Virus record (IMG/VR): IMGVR_UViG_3300038492_000581 | Span: 25,815-89,814 of that record | Source of the DNA: a virus | Taxonomy: Duplodnaviria; Heunggongvirae; Uroviricota; Caudoviricetes | Length of the DNA: 64,000 nt | Direction: 5' to 3' (one strand) | Shown: positions 6,720 to 58,950 of the stretch, piece after piece | Layout of the letters: every line of letters starts with the position of its first letter | Numbering within the stretch: the stretch's first letter is position 1 | Program-made: the position numbers and the translations under genes | The notes under the pieces: generated by a model | What the model was told of the DNA's origin: nothing | Seen by the model: only the letters and a program-made list of their open reading frames with translations | Databases searched by the model: none

Positions 6720-7477
6720 GACTTGTTCCGCACCATTTTCAACATTGAATCGAAATCGTTGTATTCAAATTCTACGAGGCTTTGTCCATTCCATACCTCT
6801 TGCATGTTTGCTCGCAGTGTCGGATCATTAATGAAAAACCAACCCTGTCGATTTCGAGGGAGCAGTTCTTCCCAAGTATCTTTGCCATAATGATCTCTGT
6901 CTTCTTCGTTGGATACTTGGTAGTTAATCATATCCTTCATTTCGGAGACAGATTTTCCGTGCAGCTCTCTGTGCGAAAACATCGATCTCGCATACATTGA
7001 GACCGAGTTTCTGGTTGCGTCTCTCCAACGCCACAAAAAATAGTTTCCAACATCTTCCCAAGGCATGTTCCAGCAACGAGCATCAAACATGGCGGGATTT
7101 TCGATTGGGCGGAGAGAATCTTGGTTAAGCAGGCTCGAATTAAATGCTGCGGTTGCTACAGACGATGCAATACTGCAAATCTTCTGCACCTTGCCGCCGA
7201 ACCAAGGCTGACTTTGAGTACGTGCATCTGTTTGAAGGACAATGCTGAATTCATCCGACTGCACGTACCCAAAGATGGCACCCTGAGCTTCTTGCATTAA
7301 AGCTCTGGCAACATCATTCATGCCCCTATTAATCTTCGAATCAAAACAGTGCATGCCTTTTGTATAGTTGTGAAATGATCTGCCGTCCACCCGGATTAAG
7401 ATGGGCATACGAGGAACCAGCACAGACGAGTTGGCCGATTCATACGACTTCATTCTATCGCCGAGAGCGTCTTTCAT
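6716..7477 (-). CDS. Thg1-like protein (tRNA-His guanylyltransferase family)
   Basis: RVDGRSFHNYTK and FGYVQSDEFSIVL match the Thg1 signatures RLDGRxFxxF and YxQSDEhS. The track start at 7555 overlaps the upstream gene; the internal MKDALGDRMKSYE start at 7477 is preferred. Confidence 0.65.
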   Translation of the reverse strand: MKDALGDRMKSYESANSSVLVPRMPILIRVDGRSFHNYTKGMHCFDSKINRGMNDVARALMQEAQGAIFGYVQSDEFSIVLQTDARTQSQPWFGGKVQKICSIASSVATAAFNSSLLNQDSLRPIENPAMFDARCWNMPWEDVGNYFLWRWRDATRNSVSMYARSMFSHRELHGKSVSEMKDMINYQVSNEEDRDHYGKDTWEELLPRNRQGWFFINDPTLRANMQEVWNGQSLVEFEYNDFDSMLKMVRNKS

Positions 7478-8132
7478 TACTCTTCTTCTTTCCCATACCG
7501 GCATCATCGATATAACGGACAATAATCTGGTCGATTTTTTCTCCCTCGCCGCCAAGCTCGTTCATGGCGTGATGAATTTGTGCAAGTAAATTCCTCTGAG
7601 GATAGGGCTTATTGATGAACTCCGGTCCGCGACCCTGGGCATCTGCCTGTGAAATTAGGCCCACCGAAGCTTGATATTGACCAAGATTACGAATTAGCCT
7701 GACGCGTGTGATAGTCTTCAGTTCATTCAGTTTGTGTACTAAGAGATGGTACTTGGAAGCTCGCCAGGCTGTTTCTCGAAACGAATCTGGTGCATTAAAA
7801 GCATCGCATAACTTATGTACAAGAGGTACGCCCAAACTTTCGTGGTCGTAGTGATGCGGGAGATTATCGTCGGGAGTAACGGCTTTGCCGAGGTCATGAC
7901 ACATTGCCCCGAACACCTCTTGAGGGTCACCACCCAGTTCAACAGCACGGTCGACTACCAGGTACGTATGTACGAATGCATCGCCTTCTGGATGCCATTT
8001 GGGAGGCTGTAGCCGCCCTTTTAGATTGTATACCCAAGGGAGATGTTTCTCCATGTCTTCATCTGACATATTACGGAGAAAATCTCCCCCCTGAGTGGTC
8101 AATCCATCAATCAGTTTGTTAAATTCCATCAC
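7455..8132 (-). CDS. HD-domain protein resembling the C-terminal HD (phosphatase/2',3'-cyclic phosphodiesterase) domain of bacterial CCA-adding enzyme
   Basis: KWHPEGDAFVHT...MCHDLGKA resembles the CCA-enzyme HD-domain HPEIDTGIHT...HDIGK, as recalled from memory. Confidence 0.45.
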   Translation of the reverse strand: MMEFNKLIDGLTTQGGDFLRNMSDEDMEKHLPWVYNLKGRLQPPKWHPEGDAFVHTYLVVDRAVELGGDPQEVFGAMCHDLGKAVTPDDNLPHHYDHESLGVPLVHKLCDAFNAPDSFRETAWRASKYHLLVHKLNELKTITRVRLIRNLGQYQASVGLISQADAQGRGPEFINKPYPQRNLLAQIHHAMNELGGEGEKIDQIIVRYIDDAGMGKKKSNERRSRR

Positions 8133-8565: not shown

Positions 8566-10575
8566 CTACGCTCTCCTTGAGTACATAATGTCAGTTTTTG
8601 GAACGTTGATAGTATAACTTTCGCCTTCAAGGCTGTCAAGGGGACTTTGAATACTTCCCCCATTACGGTTAGTTTTCGAATCCTCCTGCATATAGATTCG
8701 ATAAGCACGCTTGCCGCTGCCGTTGAAGATGTCTGCATTTTGCTGAGATAATCCAGACAAACCATCAGTGAAGATGATGACTGCATCAACATCGTCAGTT
8801 TGAATCTTCTCGTTACAGTATTCGATGACCTCATCGAAACAGGTTGAAGCACCGGCGAACACCTCGCCGGCTCTCATCTGAGCGATTTCGTTTTCATCAA
8901 GCTCTTTGATAGAGCCGGCGAAACTCATAACTCCGGAATCTCCATCGTCATTTCGCGAAAAAGCAATGTCGGCCTTTTCCTCAAACGTATCGCACATATA
9001 CATCATATGAGGAAAGAACTCGGTCATCGAAGGAGAAAGATCGAAGAACACGAGAACGCGACGCTTGCCTTCGGTACCCTCTTGATTTTGAAACAATGGG
9101 TATACAGGCGGACGCATACCCATAATTGCCATCATTGTACCTTCCTCAGTAAGAATCTGAGGATAAGGTCGGCTCATGATGTCATTTTCAAGCACCTCGG
9201 TAATTCGGCCAGCAACATCACGCATGATTTTTTCTGTGTAGATTTTCTCTGCGTAACGATCGAGACCAGGATCGGAAATATCTTCTGGCGTTTTAATGAA
9301 CTTGTCCCAAAATTCGGTCCTACAGTCAGAATACTTTTTCCAGCCCAAGCCACCCTGCAGTCTCTTGGGGACTAAAGACTTGCGTAGAGCCTCTTCGGCT
9401 TCGCGTGCTGATTCCGAGGCAATGTTTAGGCAATCTTCCATCATTCTGATGGTAGATCCATTAGGCATTTTTACTTCGTTCTTATTTTTGCCCTGACCTC
9501 CACCTTGTTGGTTCTTTTGTTCCTCACCCTCTCCTTCGCCACCACCGCCAGGCATTTTAAGAAGAGGAGCTTGACAATCGCTGTCTTCATCCATACCAAA
9601 AGGGTTCATTCCTTTAGTATTTTCATCGATCGGGACACCGAGTCTGGATAGGGCCATTCGATCGTCATAAGTGAGCTGAGAGCGTAGCCGGAAATATAGA
9701 TCATCAGGATTGACGTTTCGGATGTCAAACTTGAGCCTCTTGTAGACTTTCTTGGTTCGTTTCTTCTTAGTCTTCGGAGTTTCGTACTCGATTTCCTGCG
9801 GACCAGTGTCGTAAAGGCTTTCCCAAATCTCTGCGTAAGCGGGATTGACCCTGCGAAGCTTTCTGAGATCGGCATCCTCTAAAGAAGAGTTTGCCAAGGC
9901 CAGAACAGTGAACTTGCTTTCGTCAGGATATAGATATTGACAAAGTTTGTTCCATGCCTTTGAAACTTTGCCAGTAGTAGTGGCCGCCATGATTCGATTA
10001 GCACAAATGTCCATAACAAATCGTGCTAACCTCTTATCACCCAAATTTTCTCGACCACGACACAATGCCCGATGAAGAACCGCCCGTTGCATGATCATAC
10101 GAGCATAAGCCATCTTCCCCATAAGAATATAAGGATTGATGAGAATACGCTCTTTATTATTCTCGTCCAAACCCCACAGACAAATATCTACGTCGGTATT
10201 CGGTTCAGTGATTGTTCGAGCATGCAGATAACTAACACGCATCTTCATGTAAATCTTGCTGATACGAGCTTCCATCTTAGTTCGAGGCTTAACGGCGAAG
10301 ATATCGTACTTAGCGTTGCCTTTCAGCTCGCGACGCATTTCATCGAGATCGATGGGCAGAATCTTTTCTTCGGGTTTAACAAGCTTGCCATAACGCCATA
10401 GCTTGTCTCCGGATTGATCAACCTCAAACCATTTGATGAACCTGCCTTTGGATGTATCTTGTCCATACCTATTGCATCGAGTAGCAAGACTTCCATCTGC
10501 TGAAGTAGGAAGGGGTGCATCGGATCGTACAGTAATGGCGTGAGTTGAATAATCAGTTAGTTGAATGTCGCTCAT
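8566..10575 (-). CDS. von Willebrand factor A domain protein (CobT-like)
   Basis: 669 aa. Acidic/Gly-rich linker GGGGEGEGEEQ and a C-terminal vWA (RVLVFFDLSPSM ... IIFTDG). It sits immediately downstream of the MoxR-like ATPase. Confidence 0.55.
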   Translation of the reverse strand: MSDIQLTDYSTHAITVRSDAPLPTSADGSLATRCNRYGQDTSKGRFIKWFEVDQSGDKLWRYGKLVKPEEKILPIDLDEMRRELKGNAKYDIFAVKPRTKMEARISKIYMKMRVSYLHARTITEPNTDVDICLWGLDENNKERILINPYILMGKMAYARMIMQRAVLHRALCRGRENLGDKRLARFVMDICANRIMAATTTGKVSKAWNKLCQYLYPDESKFTVLALANSSLEDADLRKLRRVNPAYAEIWESLYDTGPQEIEYETPKTKKKRTKKVYKRLKFDIRNVNPDDLYFRLRSQLTYDDRMALSRLGVPIDENTKGMNPFGMDEDSDCQAPLLKMPGGGGEGEGEEQKNQQGGGQGKNKNEVKMPNGSTIRMMEDCLNIASESAREAEEALRKSLVPKRLQGGLGWKKYSDCRTEFWDKFIKTPEDISDPGLDRYAEKIYTEKIMRDVAGRITEVLENDIMSRPYPQILTEEGTMMAIMGMRPPVYPLFQNQEGTEGKRRVLVFFDLSPSMTEFFPHMMYMCDTFEEKADIAFSRNDDGDSGVMSFAGSIKELDENEIAQMRAGEVFAGASTCFDEVIEYCNEKIQTDDVDAVIIFTDGLSGLSQQNADIFNGSGKRAYRIYMQEDSKTNRNGGSIQSPLDSLEGESYTINVPKTDIMYSRRA

Positions 10576-10703: not shown

Positions 10704-12086
10704 TCAATCATCGTTATTCGTTGCTAAAATCTCGGAAACCTGCAAAGAGTTAAGACGATCGGCCTTTGCGTACTTGGAGGCCATCATTTGCATTTTAGAG
10801 TCAGTGCAGTCAGGATAGCTGCCATGCATGAGAACTCGTGCAATATCCGTGATGACAAAGCCACGAACTTGATCGGCAACATGCTTGGTCTTAGGGTGAT
10901 CCTTGAGAACTTTCCATAGAGGACCAACCTGAGAGATGTCTTCGGAAGTTGCCTGATTTAGAGTATCGCCAGTGATACGGGTGATTTCCAAATCATCAAG
11001 ATGTTGGCAAACGTTGGCAATTTCTCTTTGAAGAAAATCAACCTTCTGTCGGGCCGACAGGGCCGAAGCAAAGCCACAGTGAAGTTTGCCCTCGGGGGTG
11101 TTGATGCCTTCGACGAGCATTCCGGATAGCTGACGCCAAGCTTTATTACAGATGTCAATGAACTCGGGCCCAGCCTCTGAATGATGGGTCTGAATATTGT
11201 AGCGAACCGCATACTCTCCGGCAAGCTGAAGAGGATTAGGATATCCCATTACTCGGAAATATGCACAAAGCCCCACAATAGCGATCGGAAGTTGTGCTGC
11301 AAAAGTACGAGGAGAAGTCCAAGCAGCGAGATTCTCTCTAAGCTCCGTGCTTCCCATCACCTTGTCTTTGATGTGAGGGATAAAAGCACTAACGAATGTA
11401 GACATCTGCTCGAATAAATCATCATCTTCAATGAGAATTTCGTACTCTTGTCGAGTTTTTACAATCACTTCGTCAAGCTCGGTCGCAATAGACTGAAGAT
11501 TTCGGCCAGAACTTCTTCGGTTAAGTGCGATCATACTACGAACATCGCTGGGTTCTACAGTCTCATAATTTTCGCATGGTAACCAAAAAAGAAAACGATC
11601 CTTGAGGGCCGCATCCAGCTTACGAGAATTCTTGTACGTGGCTGGATTGCCTGTGGCAATAGCAAGAGTGTAGTCGCATGGAATACCCTGAAATGAACGC
11701 TCTTCGAGAACTTCCATCCAATAGTTCATGCGTTCTGTGTTGGCACGGGCCAGCTCGTCAATAACGACAATATTGGCACCAAAGATCGATCGGTCCGTTT
11801 TGATAAACTCAAACTTGCCGGTCTTTTCGGCACCCGCCATGTTTGGGAATCCACCAATATCAATTAGGCCCGCTTTATCTGCTGAATAGTAGCGGAATCC
11901 GCGACCAGTCTCATCAATAGTGCGACCAAGAACCTTGCCCAGCGTGGTCTTGCCAACACCGTGAAGAGCTTCGAGATAAATATTGTGCCGAAGTGCCGCG
12001 GCAACAACAACGCACGGCTCGATCTTGTGATATCCTCCTACAATTTTTTCGAGGATACTTTGACTCTTAGGAATGGTGAAGCTCAT
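10704..12086 (-). CDS. MoxR-like AAA+ ATPase (CobS-like)
   Basis: Walker A ALHGVGKTTL, Walker B VVIDELARAN, sensor ATGNP and LDAALKDRF. Confidence 0.65.
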   Translation of the reverse strand: MSFTIPKSQSILEKIVGGYHKIEPCVVVAAALRHNIYLEALHGVGKTTLGKVLGRTIDETGRGFRYYSADKAGLIDIGGFPNMAGAEKTGKFEFIKTDRSIFGANIVVIDELARANTERMNYWMEVLEERSFQGIPCDYTLAIATGNPATYKNSRKLDAALKDRFLFWLPCENYETVEPSDVRSMIALNRRSSGRNLQSIATELDEVIVKTRQEYEILIEDDDLFEQMSTFVSAFIPHIKDKVMGSTELRENLAAWTSPRTFAAQLPIAIVGLCAYFRVMGYPNPLQLAGEYAVRYNIQTHHSEAGPEFIDICNKAWRQLSGMLVEGINTPEGKLHCGFASALSARQKVDFLQREIANVCQHLDDLEITRITGDTLNQATSEDISQVGPLWKVLKDHPKTKHVADQVRGFVITDIARVLMHGSYPDCTDSKMQMMASKYAKADRLNSLQVSEILATNNDD

Positions 12087-12739: not shown

Positions 12740-13105
12740 CTATTTTTTCTCGATTTTTCCTTCTTCGTAGCCGCTGCACTGTTTTACTTCTGGCACGTCT
12801 ATTTGCTTTCTTAAGATTGGATGACAGCAAATGCCGTGAATGAATGTCTTGACGGTGTGGGCTTTTGATTCAACCTCTTTGGTGCCATCATCGTCATTTT
12901 CGCCGTGACCAAACAATTCGTTGTGGGCGGCAAGAGCGTGATCTACTTCAGCCGGGCTATTTTCGTCGAAGAATGTGCCGTCTTCAACCACGGGATGAGC
13001 TGTACGAACATCAAAGATGCTCTCAGTTGCCAACTTAAGCCCACAAATTCCATGCTTACAAGTAAAGCATAGCGAATTCTCTGCGTTTAGTTCGTTTTTA
13101 CTCAT
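12740..13105 (-). CDS. hypothetical Cys/His-rich protein
   Basis: 121 aa with several CxxC/HxxxC pairs. Confidence 0.35.
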   Translation of the reverse strand: MSKNELNAENSLCFTCKHGICGLKLATESIFDVRTAHPVVEDGTFFDENSPAEVDHALAAHNELFGHGENDDDGTKEVESKAHTVKTFIHGICCHPILRKQIDVPEVKQCSGYEEGKIEKK

Positions 13106-13680
13106 TTGTTTCTTTCAAATACCAGAGGATCATCCCATAGAACTTCGCCAGGAATATGCTGATAGGTGTCAATGAAACGCTGAATTACATCAAGCGGAAC
13201 ATTATGAACATTTCGTTTAACCAAAACCTTAGCATCCCACGGTCCTGGTGTCCGAATGATTTCAAACCGGTAATCAAACTGTCTCGCCAAATCAGCATAG
13301 ACTTGTACATCTCTTATTTTGATTGATGTATTAGAAACAATAATGCATTCGGTTCGTGCGATCATTTCTCGCTTTACTTCAAGTTGACACCACTTGTGAG
13401 CATCCCCCAGAAAATCTTTATTGAATGCGTAATTTGGGCCCCAAAAGTTATCGGCTTCAATTACAGGAGGACTTTCGATTTCGTCGTGCGATCTACTGAA
13501 CATGAACTGCTCAGAAAGATGGTTTGCGATTGTACTCTTGCCAGTTCCACAAGGGCCGCGTACAATATAAAGAATTGGCTTCTGTTTTTCACAGTATGAC
13601 AATGGTCTATATCCAAGATGTTTGAGAAGTTTGTCGTCCATGATCAAAAGTTTGGGCGGCCCCATTTTTGGGCCGCCCAA
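13102..13680 (-). CDS. polynucleotide 5'-kinase-like P-loop kinase (T4 Pnk kinase-domain-like, no fused phosphatase domain)
   Basis: P-loop IVRGPCGTGKST. IIVSNTSI and KRNVHNVPLDVIQRFIDTY parallel T4 Pnk IISDTNL and [20 protein letters not shown]. Confidence 0.55.
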   Translation of the reverse strand: MGGPKMGPPKLLIMDDKLLKHLGYRPLSYCEKQKPILYIVRGPCGTGKSTIANHLSEQFMFSRSHDEIESPPVIEADNFWGPNYAFNKDFLGDAHKWCQLEVKREMIARTECIIVSNTSIKIRDVQVYADLARQFDYRFEIIRTPGPWDAKVLVKRNVHNVPLDVIQRFIDTYQHIPGEVLWDDPLVFERNK

Positions 13681-14639: not shown

Positions 14640-14730
14640 TGAGTGGAGCCGGCGAGAATTGAACTCGCGTGCTGCTGTCCGTCGCCTCGATAGGATTTTA
14701 CACGCTTAGTTTCTTGCGAAACATTGGGGG
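14640..14730 (-). tRNA. possible tRNA-like element. Only the T-arm was recognised.
   Basis: Minus-strand GCGAGTTCAATTCTCGC T-arm followed by CGGCTCCA. I could not pair a 5' acceptor strand. Confidence 0.2.
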
Positions 14731-15012
14731 ACGTATTTGGTACGTCGCCTTCCACCACTCTGTTTTGTGAAAACAGAGAAAACGTTTTGCCGATGTATTA
14801 TAGTCGTCCCAATCTATCGGCATCAATTGGTTTGACTTGCTGCTACGCAGCCATCTTTGTAGTGCCAGTTAGGCTTGAGCATTCTGTTAAGGTCGGACGC
14901 ACAACAACCCTGCGTGACTATCTCAGTTCGTGAACCCAGTCGATACCTTTCGGCCCCGGGTACCATTAATAGTACACTTAATGGTGTCTAAAGTCAACTG
15001 ATTTTTGATGAT

Positions 15013-22921: not shown

Positions 22922-23385
22922 GAGTTGAGTATCCTGATAATTTGATCGGCTTCCGCAACAGTTAAACCTCCATTCTTTCCATTTGTTTTTACAAAGAAAG
23001 GAAGCTGTATTTCTTCATCGTCCACAATAGCACAACGAGTCATCGTAAGAAGAGGGTTAAGCTCTGTATCAACGATCCAAAGCATGATTTCAGACCTCCG
23101 ATCACGCAGGCTCATTTTAATGGGCGTAAACCATTTTGGCCGACTTATATCCATGGCATCAAAAGCTTGAAAGACTTTATTTCGATCGTAACGCCACGAA
23201 GAAGATACGCATACTTCGCAGCCAGTTTCTTCGATGATTCTTTTTAATTGTGCTACACAAGAGGGATCGAAGCCCGCGGCTGACTGGCACCACTCAACTT
23301 GTCCATCTTCATCTGAAGGGAGATTGTCTTTCCAATGTTGGACGTGATTGAGAACACCATCGATGTCAAGAAAGAGAACTTTCAT
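22918..23385 (-). CDS. HAD-superfamily phosphatase
   Basis: LFLDIDGVL, VSSSWR and AIVDDE. Confidence 0.55.
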   Translation of the reverse strand: MKVLFLDIDGVLNHVQHWKDNLPSDEDGQVEWCQSAAGFDPSCVAQLKRIIEETGCEVCVSSSWRYDRNKVFQAFDAMDISRPKWFTPIKMSLRDRRSEIMLWIVDTELNPLLTMTRCAIVDDEEIQLPFFVKTNGKNGGLTVAEADQIIRILNS

Positions 23386-23933
23386 GATTTAAGTTTTCCA
23401 TGTTTTACAAAATATGAATGATTTTCATCTTTCAGTCTTTTGATGTATCTCTTCTGAATGTCAATCAGTTTATGTGCGTTTTTCAAACGGTTGATCGTGC
23501 CTTGTTCCCAATATGTAGATGACGAAAGTGTGCGTGAAAGATCATGTGCGTCCTCTTCGCTAAATCCTATACGTCCATCGACTTTAATGAGACGGTCGGG
23601 CATAGTTTCATAATAATGCCATCGATCAATAGCTTCGTCATCAACAACAGCCCAATTGAATATGTTATTCTGACCTACATATCGTAGAACCGCACTACTT
23701 CTATCAAAACTTTCTGTGTACACAGAAATGCTGTCTACACCATGCTCCATCATGCGACGTTTCAGAAGATCTGAGTTAAAAGCAGAAAGAGTTACTACTT
23801 TTGAATCATGCTCTCTTATTACTTGAGCAAATCGATGTAGCAAAACATCGTCAAGATCTGGATTCGTGTGGCCTTCTGCGAAGGTGTATCGATTGAATAC
23901 GCCATCAACATCAATGAATACAACAGGTTTCAT
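23382..23933 (-). CDS. HAD-superfamily phosphatase
   Basis: VFIDVDGVF and AVVDDE. Confidence 0.55.
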   Translation of the reverse strand: MKPVVFIDVDGVFNRYTFAEGHTNPDLDDVLLHRFAQVIREHDSKVVTLSAFNSDLLKRRMMEHGVDSISVYTESFDRSSAVLRYVGQNNIFNWAVVDDEAIDRWHYYETMPDRLIKVDGRIGFSEEDAHDLSRTLSSSTYWEQGTINRLKNAHKLIDIQKRYIKRLKDENHSYFVKHGKLKS

Positions 23934-24588: not shown

Positions 24589-25757
24589 TCATCTCCATAA
24601 AGATTGTGTGTACGAATATAGTCTACCACAGGTGTAGGCAAATTCGAAAGATTTTTTCGAGATTCTGTGCTTGAGACTTGTTCAAACTTCGGGTTTTCAT
24701 GCGTCACAATATTGAGCGAATTAGAACGCGGTGGCCGATCTAAATCCTTGCTGTTCCGCATGAAAACATGAAGTGCCGATGTCTTCAAAGGGTCAAGATA
24801 ATCTTCTGTGGGGCAGTATTTGTCTGCTACTACTGCATTGTAGGTATCAAGACCCATCACGTAGTTCCGGACTTCGGGGCATCCAAAACTCGTTAGCATT
24901 TCGTCAAATTCAACAAATTTACCATAACCAAAAGTTACAAGAACTGGGTACCCCAAAGAATTGATCATAGAGATTCGATGAGATATATCCTTCAGATCCG
25001 TTGGCATCATCTTTCGGACATTGGTCAAACTGATTTCGAATATTGGATCTTCAGGAGACTTGAGTGCCATGTAATCGTGTGCATCTGTAACTGGCCTAAA
25101 AGATCCTCGAAACCAGTTAACGTTTTGACGAATGTGCGAGACTGCTCTTCTCGGAACTCCATCTGTACCGAAAAACAGAGGGTTGTTCTTGTTGCAAAAC
25201 TCTAACAGGTGTTCTTGTGCGAATCCTCTGCTTTTAATCACATCAATGTTTACCGGCAAGCCTTGAATATAGTCTAAGGTTTCATTCCACTTTGTTCCCC
25301 GGTAAAGAAGGACGTTTGACATGAACCATAGAATTGTATCTAAGGTTGTCATGATTGCGGTTTCGCGGGTCATTCCCTTGCGAAGACGAAAATGCATTAG
25401 TGAACGAGAGCCTTCATCGTAATACAGAGATACCCAAGCATGACTTTCTCCTTGTTCATCCTCTTTTTTGAAGGCTCCGGTAATACAAAGCGAAAAAGGT
25501 GTTTTGCCAAGCTTTTCAATTTCGTTACGATTTTCGGAATGATCTTCCCAAGCGATTCGTGCCGCCATTTCTTCTGAAACAGATGTAGTTCCTATACAGG
25601 TTGGCTGAGTGTTCTTGTGATACCTGCACGTGCTCTTGTACAGAACCTTAGAGGCACCATCATGACTGGTGAGCCATGCAGTAAGAGGCACGCCAAGGCC
25701 AGCTTCGTTGATACAGCCCATGTATCCCGAGTTTTTTAGATCTTCGAAGATTTGCAT
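24585..25757 (-). CDS. hypothetical protein in the NAD-salvage neighbourhood
   Basis: 390 aa, translationally coupled to the NAMPT gene. No PRPP-synthetase or NMNAT motif seen. Confidence 0.45.
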   Translation of the reverse strand: MQIFEDLKNSGYMGCINEAGLGVPLTAWLTSHDGASKVLYKSTCRYHKNTQPTCIGTTSVSEEMAARIAWEDHSENRNEIEKLGKTPFSLCITGAFKKEDEQGESHAWVSLYYDEGSRSLMHFRLRKGMTRETAIMTTLDTILWFMSNVLLYRGTKWNETLDYIQGLPVNIDVIKSRGFAQEHLLEFCNKNNPLFFGTDGVPRRAVSHIRQNVNWFRGSFRPVTDAHDYMALKSPEDPIFEISLTNVRKMMPTDLKDISHRISMINSLGYPVLVTFGYGKFVEFDEMLTSFGCPEVRNYVMGLDTYNAVVADKYCPTEDYLDPLKTSALHVFMRNSKDLDRPPRSNSLNIVTHENPKFEQVSSTESRKNLSNLPTPVVDYIRTHNLYGDE

Positions 25758-27379
25758 TACCAGTCTCCGTCGAGCATGTCAGCCTGAAGATTAAGGACCT
25801 CATCTCTCTGGTCTCGAATCTTCTTACTTAAAACTTCTTTTGGTTGCTCTCTATCGCGAAAGTTATTGAGAATTCTTTGTCGGGCGACAAGATTTGTTTC
25901 AAGACAAGGATCGAGAATCACCTCGTCCATATCTTGTCCAGAAATTCCATCATACCAAGGCTTCAAAAGAAATCTTGATTCTGAGATGTTATTTGTAATT
26001 GCGACGGGCCAAACAGTTTCATCGTTTTCATTCGCGTTTTCGATTACTTGAACTTCCCCAGGAATACTTGTCTTGGCAAGAGTTTCAGAACGCTTACATG
26101 TTCCGCGACCTTCAGTACCGACTTCTGCTAATTTGTAGGACAAACCAATATGATCACGTTTGATACTATTACGAAGATGTCCGCCAACACCAAACGCTCC
26201 GCTTGCAAATGGACTCCATCCGCGACGAATACAGTAGTTGATGATATTAATCATGGTTTCCCAGTCCATGCCATCACCCTCGATCCAACGAAGACGAGTG
26301 GCACACTTGAAACCATCACTTTCTTCAAAAAGATTATTGGATTCGCAAACATCAAGAACATGTTTTATGCACGTCAGTGGATCACCAGAATCGGGGCGTG
26401 CAACGATAACATTAGAGTCTTCAGACCATTCATTCGCAAGACGATCTCCAAGTTTGCTAACCATCTTGAAAAAATCATTGGTGTCTGAAACGTGGGCAGT
26501 GATTCCTGTTGTTTTTCCCAATTCGTACAACGCGGAATGACATTTCGGCTCACTTTGGAAGCCAGTTACCGTGCGGTGAGCAAGGGCGTGAATCGAACAG
26601 CCGAAAGAGGTTTGCGTATCTTTCCAGTCAAGATATGAACCAGCAACAGTGTCGGTTCCTGGAAAGACCATATTATGGGCCATACCAAGAACCTCAGACT
26701 CCATTTCGCACGCTCCAGCTCTATCGCCAAAGTCATGGCACATAATACTGATTGCAAATTGTACGTTCTCCTCAGGCCACGAAGGATGGATCTCTCGGCA
26801 GCGACGTGCAAGGTAATCACGCCACCACATGGCAGCGGTCACGCGTTCCATGGGAGCCCAGATTTGGACGAACTTGCTCTCAAACCAGCCCGCCAGCTCG
26901 CCAAACCCGTCTTGAGCTGAAACCTGCATAACAGGCTCATACGGAAACACTACGCTTCCGTCCAAAAAAGCTTCGATACGAATGGGAATAATTCCATCGC
27001 ACTCTTCGACAACTCTGACCCACATATCTCGATCAAATTGATATGGAGTGCCGCCAGCATGAAATGTGGCGAGAAATCTGTCGGCTTCTTCAATTTCGTA
27101 CATTGTAATCGGTTGAGTTAAAAGGTCACGAATGATTCTTCGTAATCCGAAGAAAACAATCCGATCATCCAAAGCCACGCCTTTTGGCATGATTTTTGAC
27201 AAACCTCGTCGAGGCACCATGTGATAGATGGAGCGTTCTTTTGCGTCTTGTGACGCGTGCGGGCCTGTGCCGATTGTATAGGCGTCTGCTCGCAGCAGGC
27301 GGGGCACCACAGGAGTACCTTCGACAAATTCCGACACTGACATCTTTTCACGCATTTCGCAACTCCTCATATTCGACAA
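25757..27379 (-). CDS. nadV: nicotinamide phosphoribosyltransferase (NAMPT/NadV)
   Basis: RADAYTIG, IRIEAFLDGSV, GWFESKFVQIWAP, CHDFGDRAG...GTDTVAG, ARPDSGDPL and IEGDGM align with human and bacterial NAMPT blocks. Confidence 0.8.
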   Translation of the reverse strand: MSNMRSCEMREKMSVSEFVEGTPVVPRLLRADAYTIGTGPHASQDAKERSIYHMVPRRGLSKIMPKGVALDDRIVFFGLRRIIRDLLTQPITMYEIEEADRFLATFHAGGTPYQFDRDMWVRVVEECDGIIPIRIEAFLDGSVVFPYEPVMQVSAQDGFGELAGWFESKFVQIWAPMERVTAAMWWRDYLARRCREIHPSWPEENVQFAISIMCHDFGDRAGACEMESEVLGMAHNMVFPGTDTVAGSYLDWKDTQTSFGCSIHALAHRTVTGFQSEPKCHSALYELGKTTGITAHVSDTNDFFKMVSKLGDRLANEWSEDSNVIVARPDSGDPLTCIKHVLDVCESNNLFEESDGFKCATRLRWIEGDGMDWETMINIINYCIRRGWSPFASGAFGVGGHLRNSIKRDHIGLSYKLAEVGTEGRGTCKRSETLAKTSIPGEVQVIENANENDETVWPVAITNNISESRFLLKPWYDGISGQDMDEVILDPCLETNLVARQRILNNFRDREQPKEVLSKKIRDQRDEVLNLQADMLDGDW

Positions 27380-28291: not shown

Positions 28292-28369
28292 TGGGGACGG
28301 TGGGGCTCGAACCCACATTTACATCCTATTACCACTGTACGGTTTAGAAGACCGCCGGGATACGTCCCC
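28292..28369 (-). tRNA. atypical tRNA-like, anticodon loop CTTCTAA (Arg TCT). No recognisable D-arm.
   Basis: Perfect acceptor GGGGACG/CGTCCCC, T-arm GTGGGTTCGAGCCCCAC and anticodon arm GCGGT-CTTCTAA-ACCGT. Only 5 nt separate TA(8-9) from the anticodon stem. A 22-nt insert (ACAGTGGTAATAGGATGTAAAT) lies between the anticodon and T arms. Confidence 0.4.
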
Positions 28370-30109: not shown

Positions 30110-30206
30110 TTTGAAACTCCGACAAAAAAGATGCACGAAACCTGCCGGGCCCAATGGCCACCCGTTGTTTTAACCAGCACTATGTCTTGGGCAGGTTTCA
30201 TGCGAG

Positions 30207-30279
30207 TGGGGGCACCAAGGATTCGAACCTGGATCTGTGCAGTTACAGTGCAGCGTGTTACCGTTAACACTATACCCCC
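30207..30279 (-). tRNA. tRNA with anticodon GTA (Tyr), type I architecture
   Basis: Acceptor GGGGGTA/TGCCCCC, D-arm GTGT-TAACGGTA-ACAC, anticodon loop CTGTAAC and T-arm CCAGGTTCGAATCCTTGG. Confidence 0.5.
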
Positions 30280-30691: not shown

Positions 30692-30777
30692 ATGAAAGAC
30701 TGGGATTCGAACCCAGACTACGGGTTCCACATAGCTGAAACAACATTCCCGCGTGCTTCCAATTACACTACCTTTCA
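30692..30777 (-). tRNA. tRNA-like gene with a 23-nt insertion where the anticodon loop should be
   Basis: Acceptor TGAAAGG/TCTTTCA, D-arm GTGT-AATTGGAA-GCAC and T-arm CTGGGTTCGAATCCCAG are all good. The stem GCGGG/CCCGT closes a 23-nt loop containing an internal hairpin GTTTC...GGAAC. Confidence 0.4.
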
Positions 30778-32877: not shown

Positions 32878-33903
32878 TTATTTTTCTCTTTCAAGATATT
32901 CAGGACTTCTTTGCTTGAGTATCAACCTGCCACCAAGTTTTTCTGACCTCTGCTCCCGCATGGGGCGGATCACGATGCCTTCGCGACGTGTATCAAGCAA
33001 CGCAGAGGTGCCGTTTGATGCTTCTTGTATAGTTCTACCACACAGCCAGTCAGCAAGCAAAACATTTTGTCCTAAAATTGGTACCATTGCAATGCCCATC
33101 GAGGTGCACAAATTAACGAACGAATCAACGTCGATCCAATTATAACCCACTTTGATATCGAATACTCTAACATCAAGCTCCGATAGCCTGTAGATGTTCT
33201 TTTGGAATCCAGGACCAATAAACTCTCCGTAAAGTGTCACAGTCTCGCCATAAGATTGTGAGATCCTTTTTGCTTTATGAAGCAGACCTGTTCTCTTGGC
33301 GACCGCCCAGTACGAATGATCTTCCTCACCATCAGGCACGATGGTAAATCTACGTTGACTGACAAAGGCTTCGTCTGTTTCAGGATTGTATGTTACGGAA
33401 AAGTTAGATCCTTCAAGCTTCTCAGTAATAAGCACTCTTTGATTCATCAGTTCTTGTGCGACTTCAGCGTAACGATCAGCACCCTCTATGTCATACATGC
33501 TCAGCCCTTCGGGTAACGCATGAAGACGACCGTTTTTGCAAGGCACCTCGGGCGGCTCGTATTTGGTTACGCCAAAGAACTCTGTCAAGTCGCCTTTGCA
33601 AGCTGCGGCCAACGATGCGGGCCCAACAATACCCTGAGAGATTTCGCCACGCAAACGCACGGTCTTTACTCTATCTTTCTTCTTACCCGAGAGTTTTCCC
33701 GTAAGACCCAGTTGTTCTTGAACACGCTCAGGTAGAATAGAATCGATTGGGAAGTAAACTACCTTGTCGCCGGGAACGTATGATTCACGACCAACAACAA
33801 ACTGAAACGTTGATCCAGCAAGCGTTGCAATATCAAGCCGGTCAGCTTGAGGGTGACGTTTTACTGTATTTATTGTTTCAATGGTTACGCCGAAAAAGCT
33901 CAT
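32878..33903 (-). CDS. RNA ligase-like nucleotidyltransferase with an N-terminal tRNA-binding (Myf/EMAP-like OB) domain
   Basis: N terminus VKRHPQADRLDIATLAGSTFQFVVGRESYVPGDKVVYFP fits the tRNA-binding domain pattern HP.AD.L..........V.G......G..V. The central KxDG-type motif ITEKLEGSNFSV fits ATP-dependent ligase motif I. Confidence 0.5.
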   Translation of the reverse strand: MSFFGVTIETINTVKRHPQADRLDIATLAGSTFQFVVGRESYVPGDKVVYFPIDSILPERVQEQLGLTGKLSGKKKDRVKTVRLRGEISQGIVGPASLAAACKGDLTEFFGVTKYEPPEVPCKNGRLHALPEGLSMYDIEGADRYAEVAQELMNQRVLITEKLEGSNFSVTYNPETDEAFVSQRRFTIVPDGEEDHSYWAVAKRTGLLHKAKRISQSYGETVTLYGEFIGPGFQKNIYRLSELDVRVFDIKVGYNWIDVDSFVNLCTSMGIAMVPILGQNVLLADWLCGRTIQEASNGTSALLDTRREGIVIRPMREQRSEKLGGRLILKQRSPEYLEREK

Positions 33904-39060: not shown

Positions 39061-39091
39061 TTCACTCTCTTGATTCTACGATGTAAAAAAG

Positions 39092-39165
39092 TACCGGGAA
39101 GTGGAGTCGAACCACTAATCACCACATTCTTAATGTGGTCGCGTTGCCAATTAGCATACCCCGGC
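39092..39165 (-). tRNA. tRNA-Leu-like, type I, with a non-canonical 9-nt anticodon loop or 7-bp stem (anticodon TAA or AAG)
   Basis: Acceptor GCCGGGG/TCCCGGT, anticodon region ACCACATTAAGAATGTGGT and T-arm AGTGGTTCGACTCCACT. The T stem starts one nucleotide later than standard, which is consistent with an enlarged anticodon loop. Confidence 0.45.
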
Positions 39166-39196: not shown

Positions 39197-39280
39197 TAGC
39201 CCCGGCTGGATTCGAACCAGCACGCCCTTTCGGGCACGAGTGTTTGAGACTCGCGTGTCTGCCATTTTCACCACGAGGCC
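39197..39280 (-). tRNA. tRNA-Leu (CAA), type II
   Basis: GGCCTCGTGGTGAAAATGGCAGACACGCGAGTCTCAAACACTCGTGCCCGAAAGGGCGTGCTGGTTCGAATCCAGCCGGGGCTA. Confidence 0.6.
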
Positions 39281-40249: not shown

Positions 40250-40311
40250 ATGAGTATTATACCCTGTGGCCGCCTTGCGGCCACAGAAAATTTTTATGCG
40301 GCGTGCCGCAG

Positions 40312-40385
40312 TGCCCCTGATAGGAGTCGAACCTATAGACACGACCTTCTGAGGATCGCCGCATTGCCAGTTAGCGTACAGAGGC
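40312..40385 (-). tRNA. tRNA with anticodon CAG (Leu), type I (short variable arm)
   Basis: Acceptor GCCTCTG/CAGGGGC, anticodon arm CGATC-CTCAGAA-GGTCG and T-arm ATAGGTTCGACTCCTAT. Confidence 0.5.
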
Positions 40386-40416: not shown

Positions 40417-41574
40417 TTAGGACTTGACGTAGAGCACCTCAGTTCCGGGGAACAGGTGTCGGTTCACGCTGGTGCTCTCAATAAAGATGGTGTAGTCACC
40501 AAAATCGCCGGGACGAATTCGAATATTGCTGCCACCAACAGGAAGATTGAGAATACTTCTGGCATTTGTGCCAGAGTACATCTTGCCGCTAATGTTGTGA
40601 CGGATTACAATCTCTTTACCAGGCTGAAGGGTTTCTGCCTTGGTAAGTTGGTAGAAAGCATTTCCTGTTTCATACTGAGATGAACCAACCCGACGACGAA
40701 TCGTCGCGGAACGAAGCTTTGCGTTGATGAAGTCTCGAATCTCCACCCAGCCCTTCTCATTCACATTTCGACCAGTCACCGCAAAGGTGGCAAACTCTTC
40801 CGAAACGTTGTGCATCTGAGAAAGATCACGAGAAGAAACGTCAACTGCGTCGACAAAGAAAGCGGTCGAGCCTCTGATGCCCTTGGTGCGGCCGTCAAAA
40901 TATCTGGCGGTACTCATCCTAATCTTGTCTGACATCTGTTTGAAACTGGCAACGTCGCCTTCTTGCCAGGCTTCAATGTTCCCTGCGGGAACACCGAGAC
41001 CCGTGAGGTATGCCTTCATGCGAGCGGGTCCCGTAAAAGCAATACTCCACCGTCCAGTTTTTTGAACTTCTTTGATCAAACTTCCAAGACGTCCTTTGTA
41101 TAGGCGAGAATTGTTTTCTTCGCCGTCGGTGATGCAAATTACAACAAAGCTTGTGTCTTTATTATTTGCATCAGGTAGGCTACGAAGATCATTGATTGCA
41201 ACACCAACTCCGTCTTCGAGGGCGGTCATTCCACTTGCTTGATAATCACGACTTGTGATCTTACGAACACGATCAATTGGTCGATTTCTCATGATCTTAC
41301 TCACAAGATCTCCGAAAGTGTAAAAGCTGAAAGTCGTCTTCTGCCCGGTTTGTGCGGCAGCAGCCTTATTGGCTTGAATTTGACTATTCACAGCTTCAAT
41401 AACTTTAGAAACACCAATTTGGTTCATCGACCAGCTTCGGTCGAGAACTATGGCAATATGGTTGGTGAGAACAACTTCTGTCGCTTTGGCGACAGACTTA
41501 CGCTTGCGGGTTTTCTTCTTGGGCTGGGTCTTGTTCGACATGAATCGACCCCGAGAATCTCTCATGATTGGCAT
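40417..41574 (-). CDS. von Willebrand factor A domain protein
   Basis: MIDAS motif IVLDRSWSM ... ICITDGEEN, followed by a C-terminal beta-rich domain. AGGAGG RBS. Confidence 0.6.
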   Translation of the reverse strand: MPIMRDSRGRFMSNKTQPKKKTRKRKSVAKATEVVLTNHIAIVLDRSWSMNQIGVSKVIEAVNSQIQANKAAAAQTGQKTTFSFYTFGDLVSKIMRNRPIDRVRKITSRDYQASGMTALEDGVGVAINDLRSLPDANNKDTSFVVICITDGEENNSRLYKGRLGSLIKEVQKTGRWSIAFTGPARMKAYLTGLGVPAGNIEAWQEGDVASFKQMSDKIRMSTARYFDGRTKGIRGSTAFFVDAVDVSSRDLSQMHNVSEEFATFAVTGRNVNEKGWVEIRDFINAKLRSATIRRRVGSSQYETGNAFYQLTKAETLQPGKEIVIRHNISGKMYSGTNARSILNLPVGGSNIRIRPGDFGDYTIFIESTSVNRHLFPGTEVLYVKS

Positions 41575-41671: not shown

Positions 41672-41839
41672 TGGTTTACAAACAATTTTAAGTCCTGAAA
41701 AGATGTGCTTTTACGCCAAAAGGTCGTTTTCGCAAGGTGTCGAGACCAGGGACAACATATAGCTTACATGATGCAAAGCACCAATGCCTACTCCTTAGAT
41801 GATAGCTGCTTCTAAGCTTACATTTCCTTTCAAGACGAG

Positions 41840-41914
41840 TGCGGATACCAAGATTCGAACTTGGACTTTCGGTTTGGAAGACCGACGTGCTAAGCCGTTA
41901 AACACTACATCCGC
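41840..41914 (-). tRNA. tRNA-Gly (TCC)
   Basis: GCGGATGTAGTGTTTAACGGCTTAGCACGTCGGTCTTCCAAACCGAAAGTCCAAGTTCGAATCTTGGTATCCGCA. Confidence 0.6.
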
Positions 41915-41919
41915 ATAAG

Positions 41920-42103
41920 TGCCGGAGGCAGGATTCGAACCTGCAAGCCGCCAGTCAAACCCCTTTTGTCTTATGGGAAGTGGCCACTTCCCATAAGACT
42001 TCATGATTCTATTCTGTTGCTGCATTTCATGATTGCAGCACGGCACCCGCTTTACGAACGGGCGTGTTTACCAATTTCACCACTCCGAGCTTAATATCGT
42101 ATA
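41920..42103 (-). tRNA. tRNA-like fragments: a 3' T-arm/acceptor element (41920..41950) and a tRNA-Tyr-like 5' half (42040..42103), separated by two strong hairpins including a perfect 26-bp palindrome
   Basis: 3' part GCAGGTTCGAATCCTGC-CTCCGGC-A. 5' part GCTCGGAG-TG-GTG-AAATTGGTAAA-CAC-G-CCCGT-TCGTAAA-GCGGG (anticodon GTA, C33). Between them lie TTATGGGAAGTGGCCACTTCCCATAA and GCTGCAATCATGAAATGCAGC. The acceptor strands pair only 5 of 7. Confidence 0.25.
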
Positions 42104-42138
42104 TTCAATTGCCAAAGATCAGCGGCTTAGCCGCTGAG

Positions 42139-42210: not shown

Positions 42211-42220
42211 TTTAAAAGGT

Positions 42221-42305
42221 AGCCCTGGCAGGACTCGAACCTGCAATCAGTCGCAAGCGACTGGAGTGACAATTTCGGCTCAAGGTAACCAACTTGGACT
42301 TTCTT
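42221..42305 (-). tRNA. tRNA-like element. Canonical D-loop and T-arm, acceptor and anticodon unresolved.
   Basis: Classic D-loop AGTTGGTTA and T-arm GCAGGTTCGAGTCCTGC followed by CAGGGCT-A. No complementary 5' strand found. The internal 7-bp hairpin AGTCGC-TT-GCGACT replaces a normal anticodon arm. Confidence 0.3.
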
Positions 42306-42715: not shown

Positions 42716-43150
42716 TTATGTCCATGTTTGTCGTAAAACTATTTTATGCACATTAGATTTGCTTGTTCCAATTTTGGCAGCTATATCTCGTATTGTCATA
42801 CCACTCTTTCTAAACTTTCGTATCTCGCTCACTTGTAATTGAGTTAGATAAGATTTCCCGCTCTTTTCTTTAACTGGATGGTTGCCACGATTTTTAGATT
42901 CTCTATCCAATGCGTTATCTCGATATGTTCCTAAGAACAAATGATCTAACTTTACACAGCTCGGATTATCGCACTTATGTAATACACATAAACCATTTGG
43001 TATTGGTCCATTTTGCATGTCCCAAGCCACTCTGTGTGCTCTCCAAGTTTTTTCTTTGTACCTAAAAGTACCATAACCCTTGGCGTCTTTTGATCCGGTC
43101 CACCACCAACAATTATTAGTTTTCCTGACTTTATTCCAAAATCGCTTCAT
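42716..43150 (-). CDS. HNH endonuclease (HNH_3/AP2-like) with a C-terminal HTH
   Basis: HRVAWDMQNGPIPNGLCVLHKCDNPSCVKLDHL and the C-terminal MTIRDIAAKIGTSKSNVHKIV. The internal start MKRFWNK is preferred. Confidence 0.55.
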   Translation of the reverse strand: MKRFWNKVRKTNNCWWWTGSKDAKGYGTFRYKEKTWRAHRVAWDMQNGPIPNGLCVLHKCDNPSCVKLDHLFLGTYRDNALDRESKNRGNHPVKEKSGKSYLTQLQVSEIRKFRKSGMTIRDIAAKIGTSKSNVHKIVLRQTWT

Positions 43151-43439
43151 ACACTTAGGTCCAAAGATAAGGCGATACATCCAAAACTCTTTTTGTTTGT
43201 TCGATATCTCTTCCAAAGCCAGCAAGTAAACTTGTACCACAATTCACCAGGGCGATACTCGTATGGAATAAGATCCCAGTAAAAGTATTGAATCTTAGTA
43301 AGAAGACCGTATGTCTCTTGTCGGTGCGTTCCACAAGTCACGCATATATCTTCATCGTCTTCTACACTCCAAGAGTATGCCGCCTTATCGCAACAATCTA
43401 TATCTCTGATTTTTATCATTTGAAAGCTCCGCTTTCAAG

Positions 43440-43509
43440 TACCGGAGGGAGGAATCGAACCTCCGATAAAGACTTATGAAATCTTCATATCAACCTTAGA
43501 TGCTCCGGC
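43440..43509 (-). tRNA. tRNA with anticodon CAT (Met, or Ile2 if lysidinylated), short (70 nt) with a reduced D-arm
   Basis: Acceptor GCCGGAG/CTCCGGT, anticodon arm AAGAT-TTCATAA-GTCTT and T-arm GGAGGTTCGATTCCTCC. The 5' end overlaps the 3' end of the HNH ORF by about 25 nt. Confidence 0.4.
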
Positions 43510-44018
43510 TTTGACCAATACCCTCTTGCGGGCTTTTCTATATTTCGTGCCTTGCACCGCTTGGCAATTGCCACATCCGAAACACCTAATTGAGCCGCCA
43601 GCTTTTGTGTGGGTATTTTCCATACCAATTTTTGTAATTCTTCGTCGCTCGGCCAATCAATTTTTGATCTGGTGCTATTGCTGCATGCTATAGAGCAATA
43701 TTTTTGTCGGCTATCATTTTGTTGAAACGATTTTCCACAAATACATTTTATTGTGGTTACTTTCGTTAAATGAAGCTTGGCATGTTCCGAAGCACTCAAA
43801 ATCTCTAAATTATCAACCGAATTATTGGTCCGATTTTCGTCTTTATGATGTACATGTTCAGAAGGATCTAAAAACCTACCGAGATGGTTTTCCATCACCA
43901 ATCTATGGAGATAGACACATCCATTTGCATAAGAAAAAGGATGGTCTGGAATACTCATAACTAAGTACCCATTACATTTCCCTTTAGGTTTAGAAAGATC
44001 GTGCTTCTTAAACTTCAT
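43485..44018 (-). CDS. HNH homing endonuclease
   Basis: GYLVMSIPDHPFSYANGCVYLHRLVMENHLGRFLDPSEHVHHKDENRTNNSVDNLEILSASEHAKLH. Confidence 0.6.
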   Translation of the reverse strand: MKFKKHDLSKPKGKCNGYLVMSIPDHPFSYANGCVYLHRLVMENHLGRFLDPSEHVHHKDENRTNNSVDNLEILSASEHAKLHLTKVTTIKCICGKSFQQNDSRQKYCSIACSNSTRSKIDWPSDEELQKLVWKIPTQKLAAQLGVSDVAIAKRCKARNIEKPARGYWSKPEHLRLI

Positions 44019-58558: not shown

Positions 58559-58950
58559 AGGTCTTGGGCTTCAGAGTCCAACATTGCCAGGATAGACATA
58601 ATGACAAAAGAGCTAAGTTCATTAGTAATGACGCCTTCGTCCAAAATACTTCGCAGTCCCTCTATCTGAACTTCTTCATCTTTATCCAAATACTTTTTGA
58701 ATTTCTTAACCAATCGTTTTGATACTTGATCTTCAGAAGCATCTGTCATCAATTCGATGAATTCATTTATAGAAGGCTTCTCTTCGTAGTTATTTAGAAA
58801 ATAACTACGAAGAATTTGTAGATCTTCTTTGGCCCCGCAAATTTCAATGGGAATTTGACAGTATTCAATTTCCAGCATCATTTTGTATAAATGAGGCGGC
58901 ACAATACTATGTGCATAAAATTTAGGTTCTGATATTGACTTGATTTTCAC
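58555..58950 (-). CDS. hypothetical protein
   Basis: 131 aa. Confidence 0.45.
   Translation of the reverse strand: MKIKSISEPKFYAHSIVPPHLYKMMLEIEYCQIPIEICGAKEDLQILRSYFLNNYEEKPSINEFIELMTDASEDQVSKRLVKKFKKYLDKDEEVQIEGLRSILDEGVITNELSSFVIMSILAMLDSEAQDL

Follow-up and report, generated by a model that had tools for sequence, protein, structure and literature searches.

A tRNA-like gene of 171 nt with a hypertrophied variable arm lies on the minus strand of a tailed-phage genome fragment from IMG/VR (Caudoviricetes; record IMGVR_UViG_3300038492_000581, positions 25,815 to 89,814). We refer to the whole analyzed stretch of 64,000 nt as the window, and all coordinates below are counted from its first letter (Table 1). 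The candidate is very probably a single class II tRNA-derived gene, with an insert in the variable-arm loop. Some 88 nt of DNA stand in place of that loop, and the usual position of introns in the anticodon loop is not used. The reading that we favor, at a probability of roughly 45%, is that of a young, insertion-damaged tRNA gene that would still be transcribed and processed but would no longer decode.

A first-pass annotation of this DNA had described two tRNA halves and had offered a split or trans-spliced tRNA, or two pseudogenes, as explanations. It also suggested a search with the Infernal tRNA model, and that search instead joins the two parts. The Rfam model RF00005 spans the gene, aligning to 41920-42089 over model positions 1-71 with a score of 34.3 bits, above the gathering score of 29 (E = 0.002 over the whole window, 2.4e-5 locally), and cmscan puts an insertion of ~98 nt in the variable region, between model positions 44 and 45. 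Folded without constraints, the 171 nt have as their minimum free energy (MFE) structure a cloverleaf of four arms and a large fifth arm. Its energy is −69.7 kcal/mol, compared with −50.3 ± 4.0 kcal/mol for shuffled sequences (z = −4.88), and none of 200 dinucleotide shuffles folded as well. The 5′ and 3′ parts lie on the same strand with 98 nt between them and are complementary to each other through seven acceptor pairs and five variable-stem pairs. When the insert is swapped for GAAA, the MFE structure of the resulting 85-nt sequence is a textbook class II cloverleaf, and the candidate aligns position for position with phage class II tRNAs. Two point deviations apart, its core is intact, with U8, A14, G18-G19, the T-loop UUCGAAU, G53-C61, all stems and the discriminator A73 in place. 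The gene has the base-paired extra arm, the 3-bp D-stem and the Leu/Tyr/Ser-type D-loop of class II tRNAs, with a 98-nt arm that is far outside the usual range for that class. ARAGORN in its standard mode does not call it. Two independent fragments, or halves joined in trans, would have a precedent in the genuine orphan 3′ half that is present 130 nt upstream (42214-42300). The mutual complementarity of the acceptor and variable-stem strands nevertheless speaks against separate fragments, as does a promoter scan that found no separate promoters for the two parts, and we regard this explanation as scarcely credible.

Several elements of the first-pass annotation were borne out by the alignment and folds. 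The 5′ part that it placed at 42040..42103 on the minus strand is present, but the gene truly starts at 42090 (or 42089), and 42091-42138 is spacer. Its Tyr-type anticodon arm is real, with the anticodon GUA at 42053-42055 and C33 at 42056, as are the clean T-arm with the 3′ acceptor strand (41920-41944, minus strand) and the ~100 nt of strongly structured sequence between the tRNA parts, which is the 98-nt block 42044-41947. G26 sits between the D-arm and the anticodon arm. An open reading frame for 83 aa at 41795-42046 was rejected as a coding gene because it passes through the adjoining tRNA-Gly.

Table 1. Coordinates of the candidate gene, its parts and other features of the window.
Feature	Coordinates	Strand	Basis
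Whole tRNA-like gene, 171 nt, class II cloverleaf with hypertrophied variable arm	41920..42090	-	Rfam RF00005 and MFE fold
5′ acceptor strand GCUCGGAG, one nucleotide in excess (U at 42088)	42083..42090	-	folds, alignment
Leu-type D-arm GUGAAAUUGGUAAACAC with a 3-bp stem; A14 and G18-G19 kept	42064..42080	-	alignment, position check
Anticodon arm CCCGU-UCGUAAA-GCGGG	42046..42062	-	cmscan; register same as phage tRNA-Leu and tRNA-Tyr
Variable arm, 98 nt, Y-shaped, closing stem GCCGU/GCGGC	41947..42044	-	cmscan; constrained and unconstrained folds
Hairpin 1, GCUGCA-AUCAUGAAA-UGCAGC, 6-bp stem, 9-nt loop	42019..42039	-	folds
Direct repeat copy 1, AAUCAUGAA, in the loop of hairpin 1	42026..42034	-	sequence
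Direct repeat copy 2, AAUCAUGAA, abutting the palindrome	42000..42008	-	sequence
Palindrome GTCTTATGGGAAGTGG/CCACTTCCCATAAGAC, perfect over 32 bp, no spacer, center TGGCCA	41968..41999	both	
T-arm GCAGG-UUCGAAU-CCUGC	41928..41944	-	cmscan, fold
3′ acceptor strand CUCCGGC and discriminator A73, CCA not encoded	41920..41927	-	sequence, cmscan
8-bp GC-rich hairpin UCAGCGGC-UAA-GCCGCUGA, followed by UCUUUGG	42119-42137	-	
Decayed tRNA patchwork directly upstream, tRNA-Gly fragment fused to a class II 3′ half	42214-42303	-	
Two free-standing HNH_3 endonuclease genes, upstream of the candidate by 0.6-2 kb and within the tRNA array	42716-43240, 43485-44018	-	
tRNA(CAU), 70 nt, D-arm reduced, acceptor GCCGGAG/CUCCGGU close to that of the candidate	43440-43509	-	Rfam, 35.9 bits
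tRNA-like gene, middle rearranged, anticodon-like hairpin in the D region	28292-28369	-	Rfam, 39.8 bits
tRNA-Tyr(GUA), 74 nt, without long arm	30206-30279	-	
tRNA-Asn(GUU), 86 nt, long extra arm	30692-30777	-	
tRNA-Leu(AAG) and tRNA-Leu(CAG), 75 nt each, without long arm	39091-39165, 40311-40385	-	
tRNA-Leu(CAA), ordinary class II	39197-39280		
tmRNA, missed by ARAGORN	14641-14957	-	Rfam, 63.3 bits
RNA-repair gene set	5655-7555 (-), 13102-13680, 23382-23933, 32878-33903, 47153-48528		Pfam
MoxR-type AAA ATPase, separate VWA protein (within the tRNA array), NAMPT/NAPRTase NAD-salvage gene	10704-12086, 25757-27379, 40417-41574	-	

The variable arm is 4-5 times the length of typical class II variable arms. 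From its 5-bp closing stem it leads to hairpin 1 and then to a second arm, in which the helices CAG/CUG and GAAUC/GGUUU are followed by the palindrome, folded as RNA into a hairpin of 14-16 bp at the tip of the arm. The first-pass annotation had reported a perfect palindrome of 26 bp. The palindrome is real, and its actual length is 32 bp, the 26-mer being its core. It is by a wide margin the longest perfect palindrome in the window. It had no match in 100 shuffles, even with three mismatches allowed, and by our own arithmetic ~1.5e−5 perfect palindromes of 32 bp would be expected in 64 kb. Because the palindrome has no spacer, and because the RNA "loop" that it would form (GGCC) is itself self-complementary, we favor an origin at the DNA level over a selected RNA hairpin. 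The 9-nt direct repeat AAUCAUGAA is exact and has a self-complementary core (UCAUGA). On sequence grounds its two copies could pair as a 6-bp pseudoknot between loop and linker, or form a paired binding site for a protein. The runner-up among the inverted repeats of the window, at 58781-58813, has perfect 15-nt arms (TCTTCGTAGTTATTT/AAATAACTACGAAGA) around a 3-nt spacer.

Neither the rest of the window nor the fetched loci contain a source for the insert. A mobile hairpin, as the first-pass annotation had also considered, finds no backing, since no second copy exists in the window, IMG/VR, the JGI metagenomes or the GTDB genomes beyond chance-level matches to a 20-mer. That 20-mer, the core of the palindrome, has two matches each in the genome and metagenome collections, all in unrelated contexts. 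Dispersal like that of repetitive extragenic palindromic (REP) sequences or miniature inverted-repeat transposable elements (MITEs) was likewise not seen, with one copy in the window (at up to three mismatches) and none in IMG/VR. A scan for a promoter or terminator at the palindrome gave no support for either.

Judged from its sequence, the body of the gene is class II and of Leu type, and only the anticodon loop is Tyr-like (GUA). A 23-mer from the acceptor and D-arm (GGAGTGGTGAAATTGGTAAACAC) has exact matches in 13 IMG/VR contigs, in nine of which ARAGORN calls a tRNA-Leu(UAA) of normal length. It is shared with ordinary class II tRNA-Leu genes of phages, such as the tRNA-Leu(CAA) of the window and the tRNA-Leu(UAA) of loci L002 and L007-L010. 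A 25-mer of the T-arm and 3′ acceptor strand recurs unchanged in two further viral contigs (L020 and L021), whose 5′ strand is its perfect complement (GCCGGAG/CUCCGGC). The candidate keeps the register of phage tRNA-Leu throughout, with G26, a 5-bp anticodon stem, a 7-nt loop, the variable stem one base on, the T-arm and A73; the variable arm reads GCCC-GAAA-GGGC in the tRNA-Leu(CAA) and GCCG-insert-CGGC in the candidate. Unlike the phage tRNA-Leu genes, it has the anticodon loop UCGUAAA, a variable loop of ~88 nt instead of 3-5 nt and an extra U in the acceptor. Bacterial tRNA-Tyr is marked by its anticodon (GUA), by A73 and by a long variable arm. The candidate has all three, without a Tyr-type body and without the C32-U33 context. 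Its loop (UC-GUA-AA) differs from that of tRNA-Tyr in L002 and L023 (CU-GUA-AA) only by a swap of positions 32 and 33.

Three features of the gene are defects by the standard of a decoding tRNA. One is the extra U at 42088 in the 5′ acceptor strand. If it is bulged out, seven Watson-Crick pairs form and the fold has the −69.7 kcal/mol given above; a start at 42089 instead gives C1.C72 and U2.G71 at −67.0 kcal/mol. A 1:72 mismatch is found in only two of the 27 tRNA-like genes of the window, the candidate and an initiator-type tRNA-Met, and no array-wide 5′ editing that could be tied to the Thg1-like gene described below was seen. Another is C33: U33 is present in all 24 tRNAs that ARAGORN calls in the window and in 49 of 52 distinct tRNAs from other phage loci. 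The remaining one is the 98-nt variable arm.

The sequence is not an assembly artifact. Three Logan contigs from two other runs, built with an assembler k of 31, match the locus. One (L029) equals 44058-41970 and another (L031) equals 41997-38792, both at 100% identity, and the last (L030) equals 41997-35979 with one mismatch, at 36624, 5 kb away. All three end inside the palindrome (41970-41997), where they overlap by 28 nt. We interpret these breaks as a consequence of the assembler k of 31, which the perfect 32-bp palindrome exceeds. The join across the palindrome is supported independently, because the acceptor and variable-stem strands to either side of it are complementary. A literature search on the SRA runs gave no result. 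Comparison with the homologous locus in related phages, which the first-pass annotation had put forward as a test, produced identical copies only and no diverged relative. Against INPHARED, megablast and blastn searches with the locus, with the insert and with the gene trimmed of its insert returned nothing useful. Exact-pattern scans with the palindrome, its core and the anticodon arm gave no relatives in IMG/VR, the JGI metagenomes or the GTDB genomes, and look-ups with the HNH gene and with P0076 returned only identical copies. The neighboring VWA protein has no close relative in IMG/VR. Its best diverged relatives in the protein database are at most 42% identical and lie on bacterial chromosomes (L014-L019, L022) or in a distant phage (L023, L024). 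One of them is located in another tRNA array (L023; NCBI GCA_020063845.1), which has a different gene order and no counterpart of the candidate.

Other Leu-type tRNA genes with inserts of 90-120 nt were encountered in four unrelated viral contigs (L001, ~8960-9150; L005, ~7000-7180 on the minus strand; L020, 6630-6827; L021, ~911-1094), all with acceptor/D-arm or T-arm/acceptor sequences identical to those of the candidate. With relaxed settings, ARAGORN -i takes the gene in L005 for a possible suppressor tRNA(UUA) whose intron is 90 nt long. We considered whether the four inserts belong to one family and rejected this, because all pairwise scores fall within the shuffled null and the insert positions differ. 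Two more contigs (L006 and L011) have the same 5′ part and no recognizable 3′ half within 400 nt.

The candidate lies in a same-strand array of ~27 tRNA-like genes and a tmRNA. It is 48 nt downstream of a tRNA-Thr(UGU) and 5 nt (CUUAU) upstream of a tRNA-Gly(UCC), and with gaps this short within an array its co-transcription with its neighbors is almost certain. The tmRNA system is bacterial, and the presence of its gene in the window thus indicates a bacterial host. The hairpin at 42119-42137 follows right after the tRNA-Thr(UGU); it has the look of a weak terminator or of a hairpin for processing, and it falls just under the T-run criterion of our scan. In the decayed patchwork upstream, 42291-42303 is an exact copy of 13 nt (41858-41870) of the tRNA-Gly(UCC). 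Its class II 3′ half consists of a variable hairpin (CAGUCG-CUUG-CGACUG), a T-arm one nucleotide different from that of the candidate and a 3′ acceptor strand like that of tRNA-Leu(CAA), for which no matching 5′ acceptor strand was found anywhere in the window. The view of the first-pass annotation that the locus is a degenerate tRNA or the insertion scar of a homing endonuclease is plausible, given this adjoining fragment and the two HNH_3 genes. Two more tRNA-like genes, at 28292-28369 and 43440-43509, are found by Rfam and not called by standard ARAGORN.

The phage also encodes a set of RNA-repair proteins that matches the tRNA-repair toolkit described for large phages (PMC7824862). The start of an Rnl1-type RNA ligase gene (PF09511) overlaps the stop of a gene for a Thg1-family 3′-5′ nucleotidyltransferase (PF04446, E = 5e−29). 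Also present are a second RNA ligase (PF09414 with a PHA02142 OB fold), RlaP, a metallophosphoesterase, HAD_SAK_2 and, as a weak match, an AAA_33 P-loop kinase. Thg1-like genes occur in 164 deposited phage records, some of which list Prevotella sp. as the host.

In the reading that we favor, the insert would be the product of a recent DNA-level event, for example break repair or an inverted duplication, in a part of the array that had already been rearranged and that adjoins two genes for HNH homing-type endonucleases. The gene would be transcribed with its neighbors, RNase P and 3′ processing would probably release a stable tRNA-shaped RNA of ~171 nt, and efficient decoding would have been lost. 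We favor such a non-decoding relic because three defects coincide in one gene, the perfect palindrome is of a DNA type, decayed sequence and endonuclease genes are adjacent, and no conservation was found. Engineered tRNAs bear on the loss of decoding. Small hairpins in the variable arm are tolerated, and a Baby Spinach aptamer in the variable loop leaves only marginal activity (PMC7590224), from which we judge that a tRNA with so large an arm would decode poorly. Like the candidate, these V-Spinach and allo-tRNA aptamer fusions carry a structured RNA on the tip of the variable arm and keep the L-shape; they are artificial, and the natural element of the candidate is larger still. Several observations nevertheless weigh against a relic. 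The core is intact but for two point deviations, where a neutral relic would be expected to have decayed more broadly unless it were very young. The insert occupies precisely the variable loop, with the closing stem kept, and this is the only site that is sterically tolerant of extra RNA. It is strongly structured, and its exact 9-nt repeat with a self-complementary core, of which ~0.015 would be expected by chance on our own estimate, hints at a function. The large set of tRNA-repair genes and the other tRNAs with remodeled variable regions fit selection on tRNA shape, and large phages are under pressure to shed junk. The identical Logan copies carry no information on selection and so provide no direct evidence either way.

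Readings in which the insert is removed from the transcript have to be weighed against such a relic. In its intron mode, ARAGORN reads the gene as a class I tRNA-Thr(CGU) of 74 nt, interrupted at 37/38 (42054/41957) by an intron of 97 nt. This would make the gene a partner of the tRNA-Thr(UGU) immediately upstream, in an array rich in isoacceptor pairs and C34 anticodons, and would restore U33 within a Thr-like loop (UUCGUA/A). The price is a C.U mismatch in the anticodon stem, a missing nucleotide 26 and a class II D-arm coupled with a 5-nt variable loop, and the perfect helices CCCGU/GCGGG and GCCG/CGGC would become coincidences. The forced fold is 11.4 kcal/mol worse (−58.3 compared with −69.7 kcal/mol), and once spliced the product fails to form a cloverleaf. 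A bulge-helix-bulge motif, in which a 4-bp helix lies between two bulges of 3 nt each where exon and intron meet, was not found; the scan gave only minimal matches of 2-3 bp, and excision there would not leave a tRNA. Since ARAGORN tries every intron length, a stem with four of five pairs is expected by chance, and we consider a tRNA-Thr(CGU) very improbable. Group I introns are about 200 nt or more in length. Like them and like bulge-helix-bulge introns, the insert interrupts a tRNA gene, but it is below group I size (~88-97 nt), lacks an Rfam match and the bulge-helix-bulge motif, and is not in the anticodon loop, and the group I intron that the first-pass annotation had in mind is not supported. 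Searches of the gene and of the 121-nt insert region alone with the laxest filters (E ≤ 10) turned up neither a ribozyme nor a group I or group II intron, nor any other Rfam family. Matches of the insert to YrlA (16.7 bits, threshold 69) and to miRNAs are noise, far below their thresholds. A splicing endonuclease was not seen among the 30 window proteins that we scanned with Pfam, a scan that was not exhaustive, and we know of no such enzyme in bacteria. Excision by other means is nevertheless conceivable. So-called "enigmatic introns" are reported from tRNA genes of Lak megaphages and other huge phages; those of Lak phages are said to be conserved, to defy classification by Rfam and to have boundaries other than 37/38, and Tyr(GTA) is one of the tRNAs affected (10.1101/356790). 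We found no later paper that resolves them. Like the candidate, these tRNAs belong to the array of a large phage, are over-long through an unclassifiable insert and are overlooked by standard bacterial tRNA finders. By analogy, a double-strand-specific RNase might cut the hairpin and a phage RNA ligase might rejoin the ends into a normal tRNA of ~85 nt. The two RNA ligases and the end-healing candidates of the phage would suit such a pathway, the closing stem GCCGU/GCGGC would keep the pieces together after cleavage, and the insert-bearing Leu-type genes of unrelated IMG/VR contigs could be taken as parallels. However, the inserts of those genes have no sequence relationship to this one and are located elsewhere in the tRNA. 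From one genome to another the Lak inserts are conserved, and they have insert-free alleles, whereas for the candidate neither an insert-free allele nor any diverged relative was found among the sequences recovered. Its insert is also in the loop of a class II variable arm and terminates in a perfect palindrome. C33 and the acceptor defect, which come along with it, would both persist after removal of the insert. With no splicing endonuclease, known ribozyme or bulge-helix-bulge at useful boundaries detected, we see excision as distinctly unlikely.

Other explanations retain the insert and give it a role. The palindrome might matter as DNA, as the site of a dimeric phage protein or as the target or footprint of a homing endonuclease, with its location in a tRNA gene being incidental. 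Its length, its lack of a spacer, the TCATGA-containing repeat on its flank and the HNH genes close by would agree with this. It is a single copy with no similar site in the window, though, and has no associated promoter or terminator; the neighboring genes are all on the same strand within a tRNA operon, and we are unable to name a candidate binding protein. A role as a DNA site thus appears improbable. A role in countering host defense is the main rival of the relic, even though we still think it unlikely. The PtuAB nucleases of Retron-Eco7 and Septu cut the variable loop of Escherichia coli tRNA-Tyr at U47/C48, and the T5-like phage SP15 neutralizes Retron-Eco7 with a tRNA-Tyr whose variable loop is 5 nt longer and is not cut; deletion or swapping of that loop abolishes the effect (PMC12673091, PMC13096335, PMC11555353). 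The candidate might likewise be a tRNA-Tyr-type RNA whose extreme variable arm resists such nucleases or acts as a decoy or sponge. It shares with the SP15 tRNA-Tyr a phage-encoded class II architecture, the GUA anticodon and a longer, altered variable arm in the region that PtuAB cuts, and it has A73. The only other tRNA-Tyr(GUA) that we note in the phage (30206-30279) is 74 nt long and lacks a long arm, and with the giant arm of the candidate this means that both Tyr genes of the phage avoid a normal variable arm. A decoy could dispense with U33 and with a perfect acceptor, and changes in the anticodon loop are known from phage tRNAs (PMC10264068). This explanation would account for a kept L-shape alongside drifted decoding features, and the tRNA-repair toolkit of the phage would be in keeping with it. 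On the other hand, it presupposes a PtuAB-like system in the host, and the candidate is a singleton for which no conserved relatives were found. The SP15 loop has a demonstrated function and differs by 5 nt, whereas the arm of the candidate, known from sequence, is ~85 nt longer, sits on a Leu-type body that makes recognition as tRNA-Tyr uncertain, and comes with abnormalities at position 33 and in the acceptor. The spacer-less perfect palindrome, moreover, resembles an event at the DNA level.

Whichever explanation holds, the locus has practical consequences for the annotation of phage tRNAs. Standard tRNA finders miss such genes or impose a reading with an intron at 37/38, and before apparent tRNA halves are taken for split genes, they should be checked for complementarity to each other. 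At such places k-mer assemblies are broken by perfect palindromes, and similar loci would usually be split across contigs in unitig-level resources. As a relic, the gene offers a clean snapshot of how the tRNA genes of phage arrays are broken and reshuffled beside homing endonucleases. If the insert were instead excised and the ends resealed by the phage ligases, this would amount to a protein-catalyzed pathway of tRNA splicing in bacteria. If the RNA is functional as it stands, it would show that a tRNA is able to bear an extra domain of ~100 nt. As an anti-defense RNA it would have the largest natural variable arm of any tRNA known to us and would represent a new way for phages to escape tRNA-targeting immunity. 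The arms race over tRNA-Tyr's variable loop, in which PtuAB, Septu and Retron-Eco7 are set against T5-like tRNA-Tyr, would then have reached an extreme structural solution in this phage.

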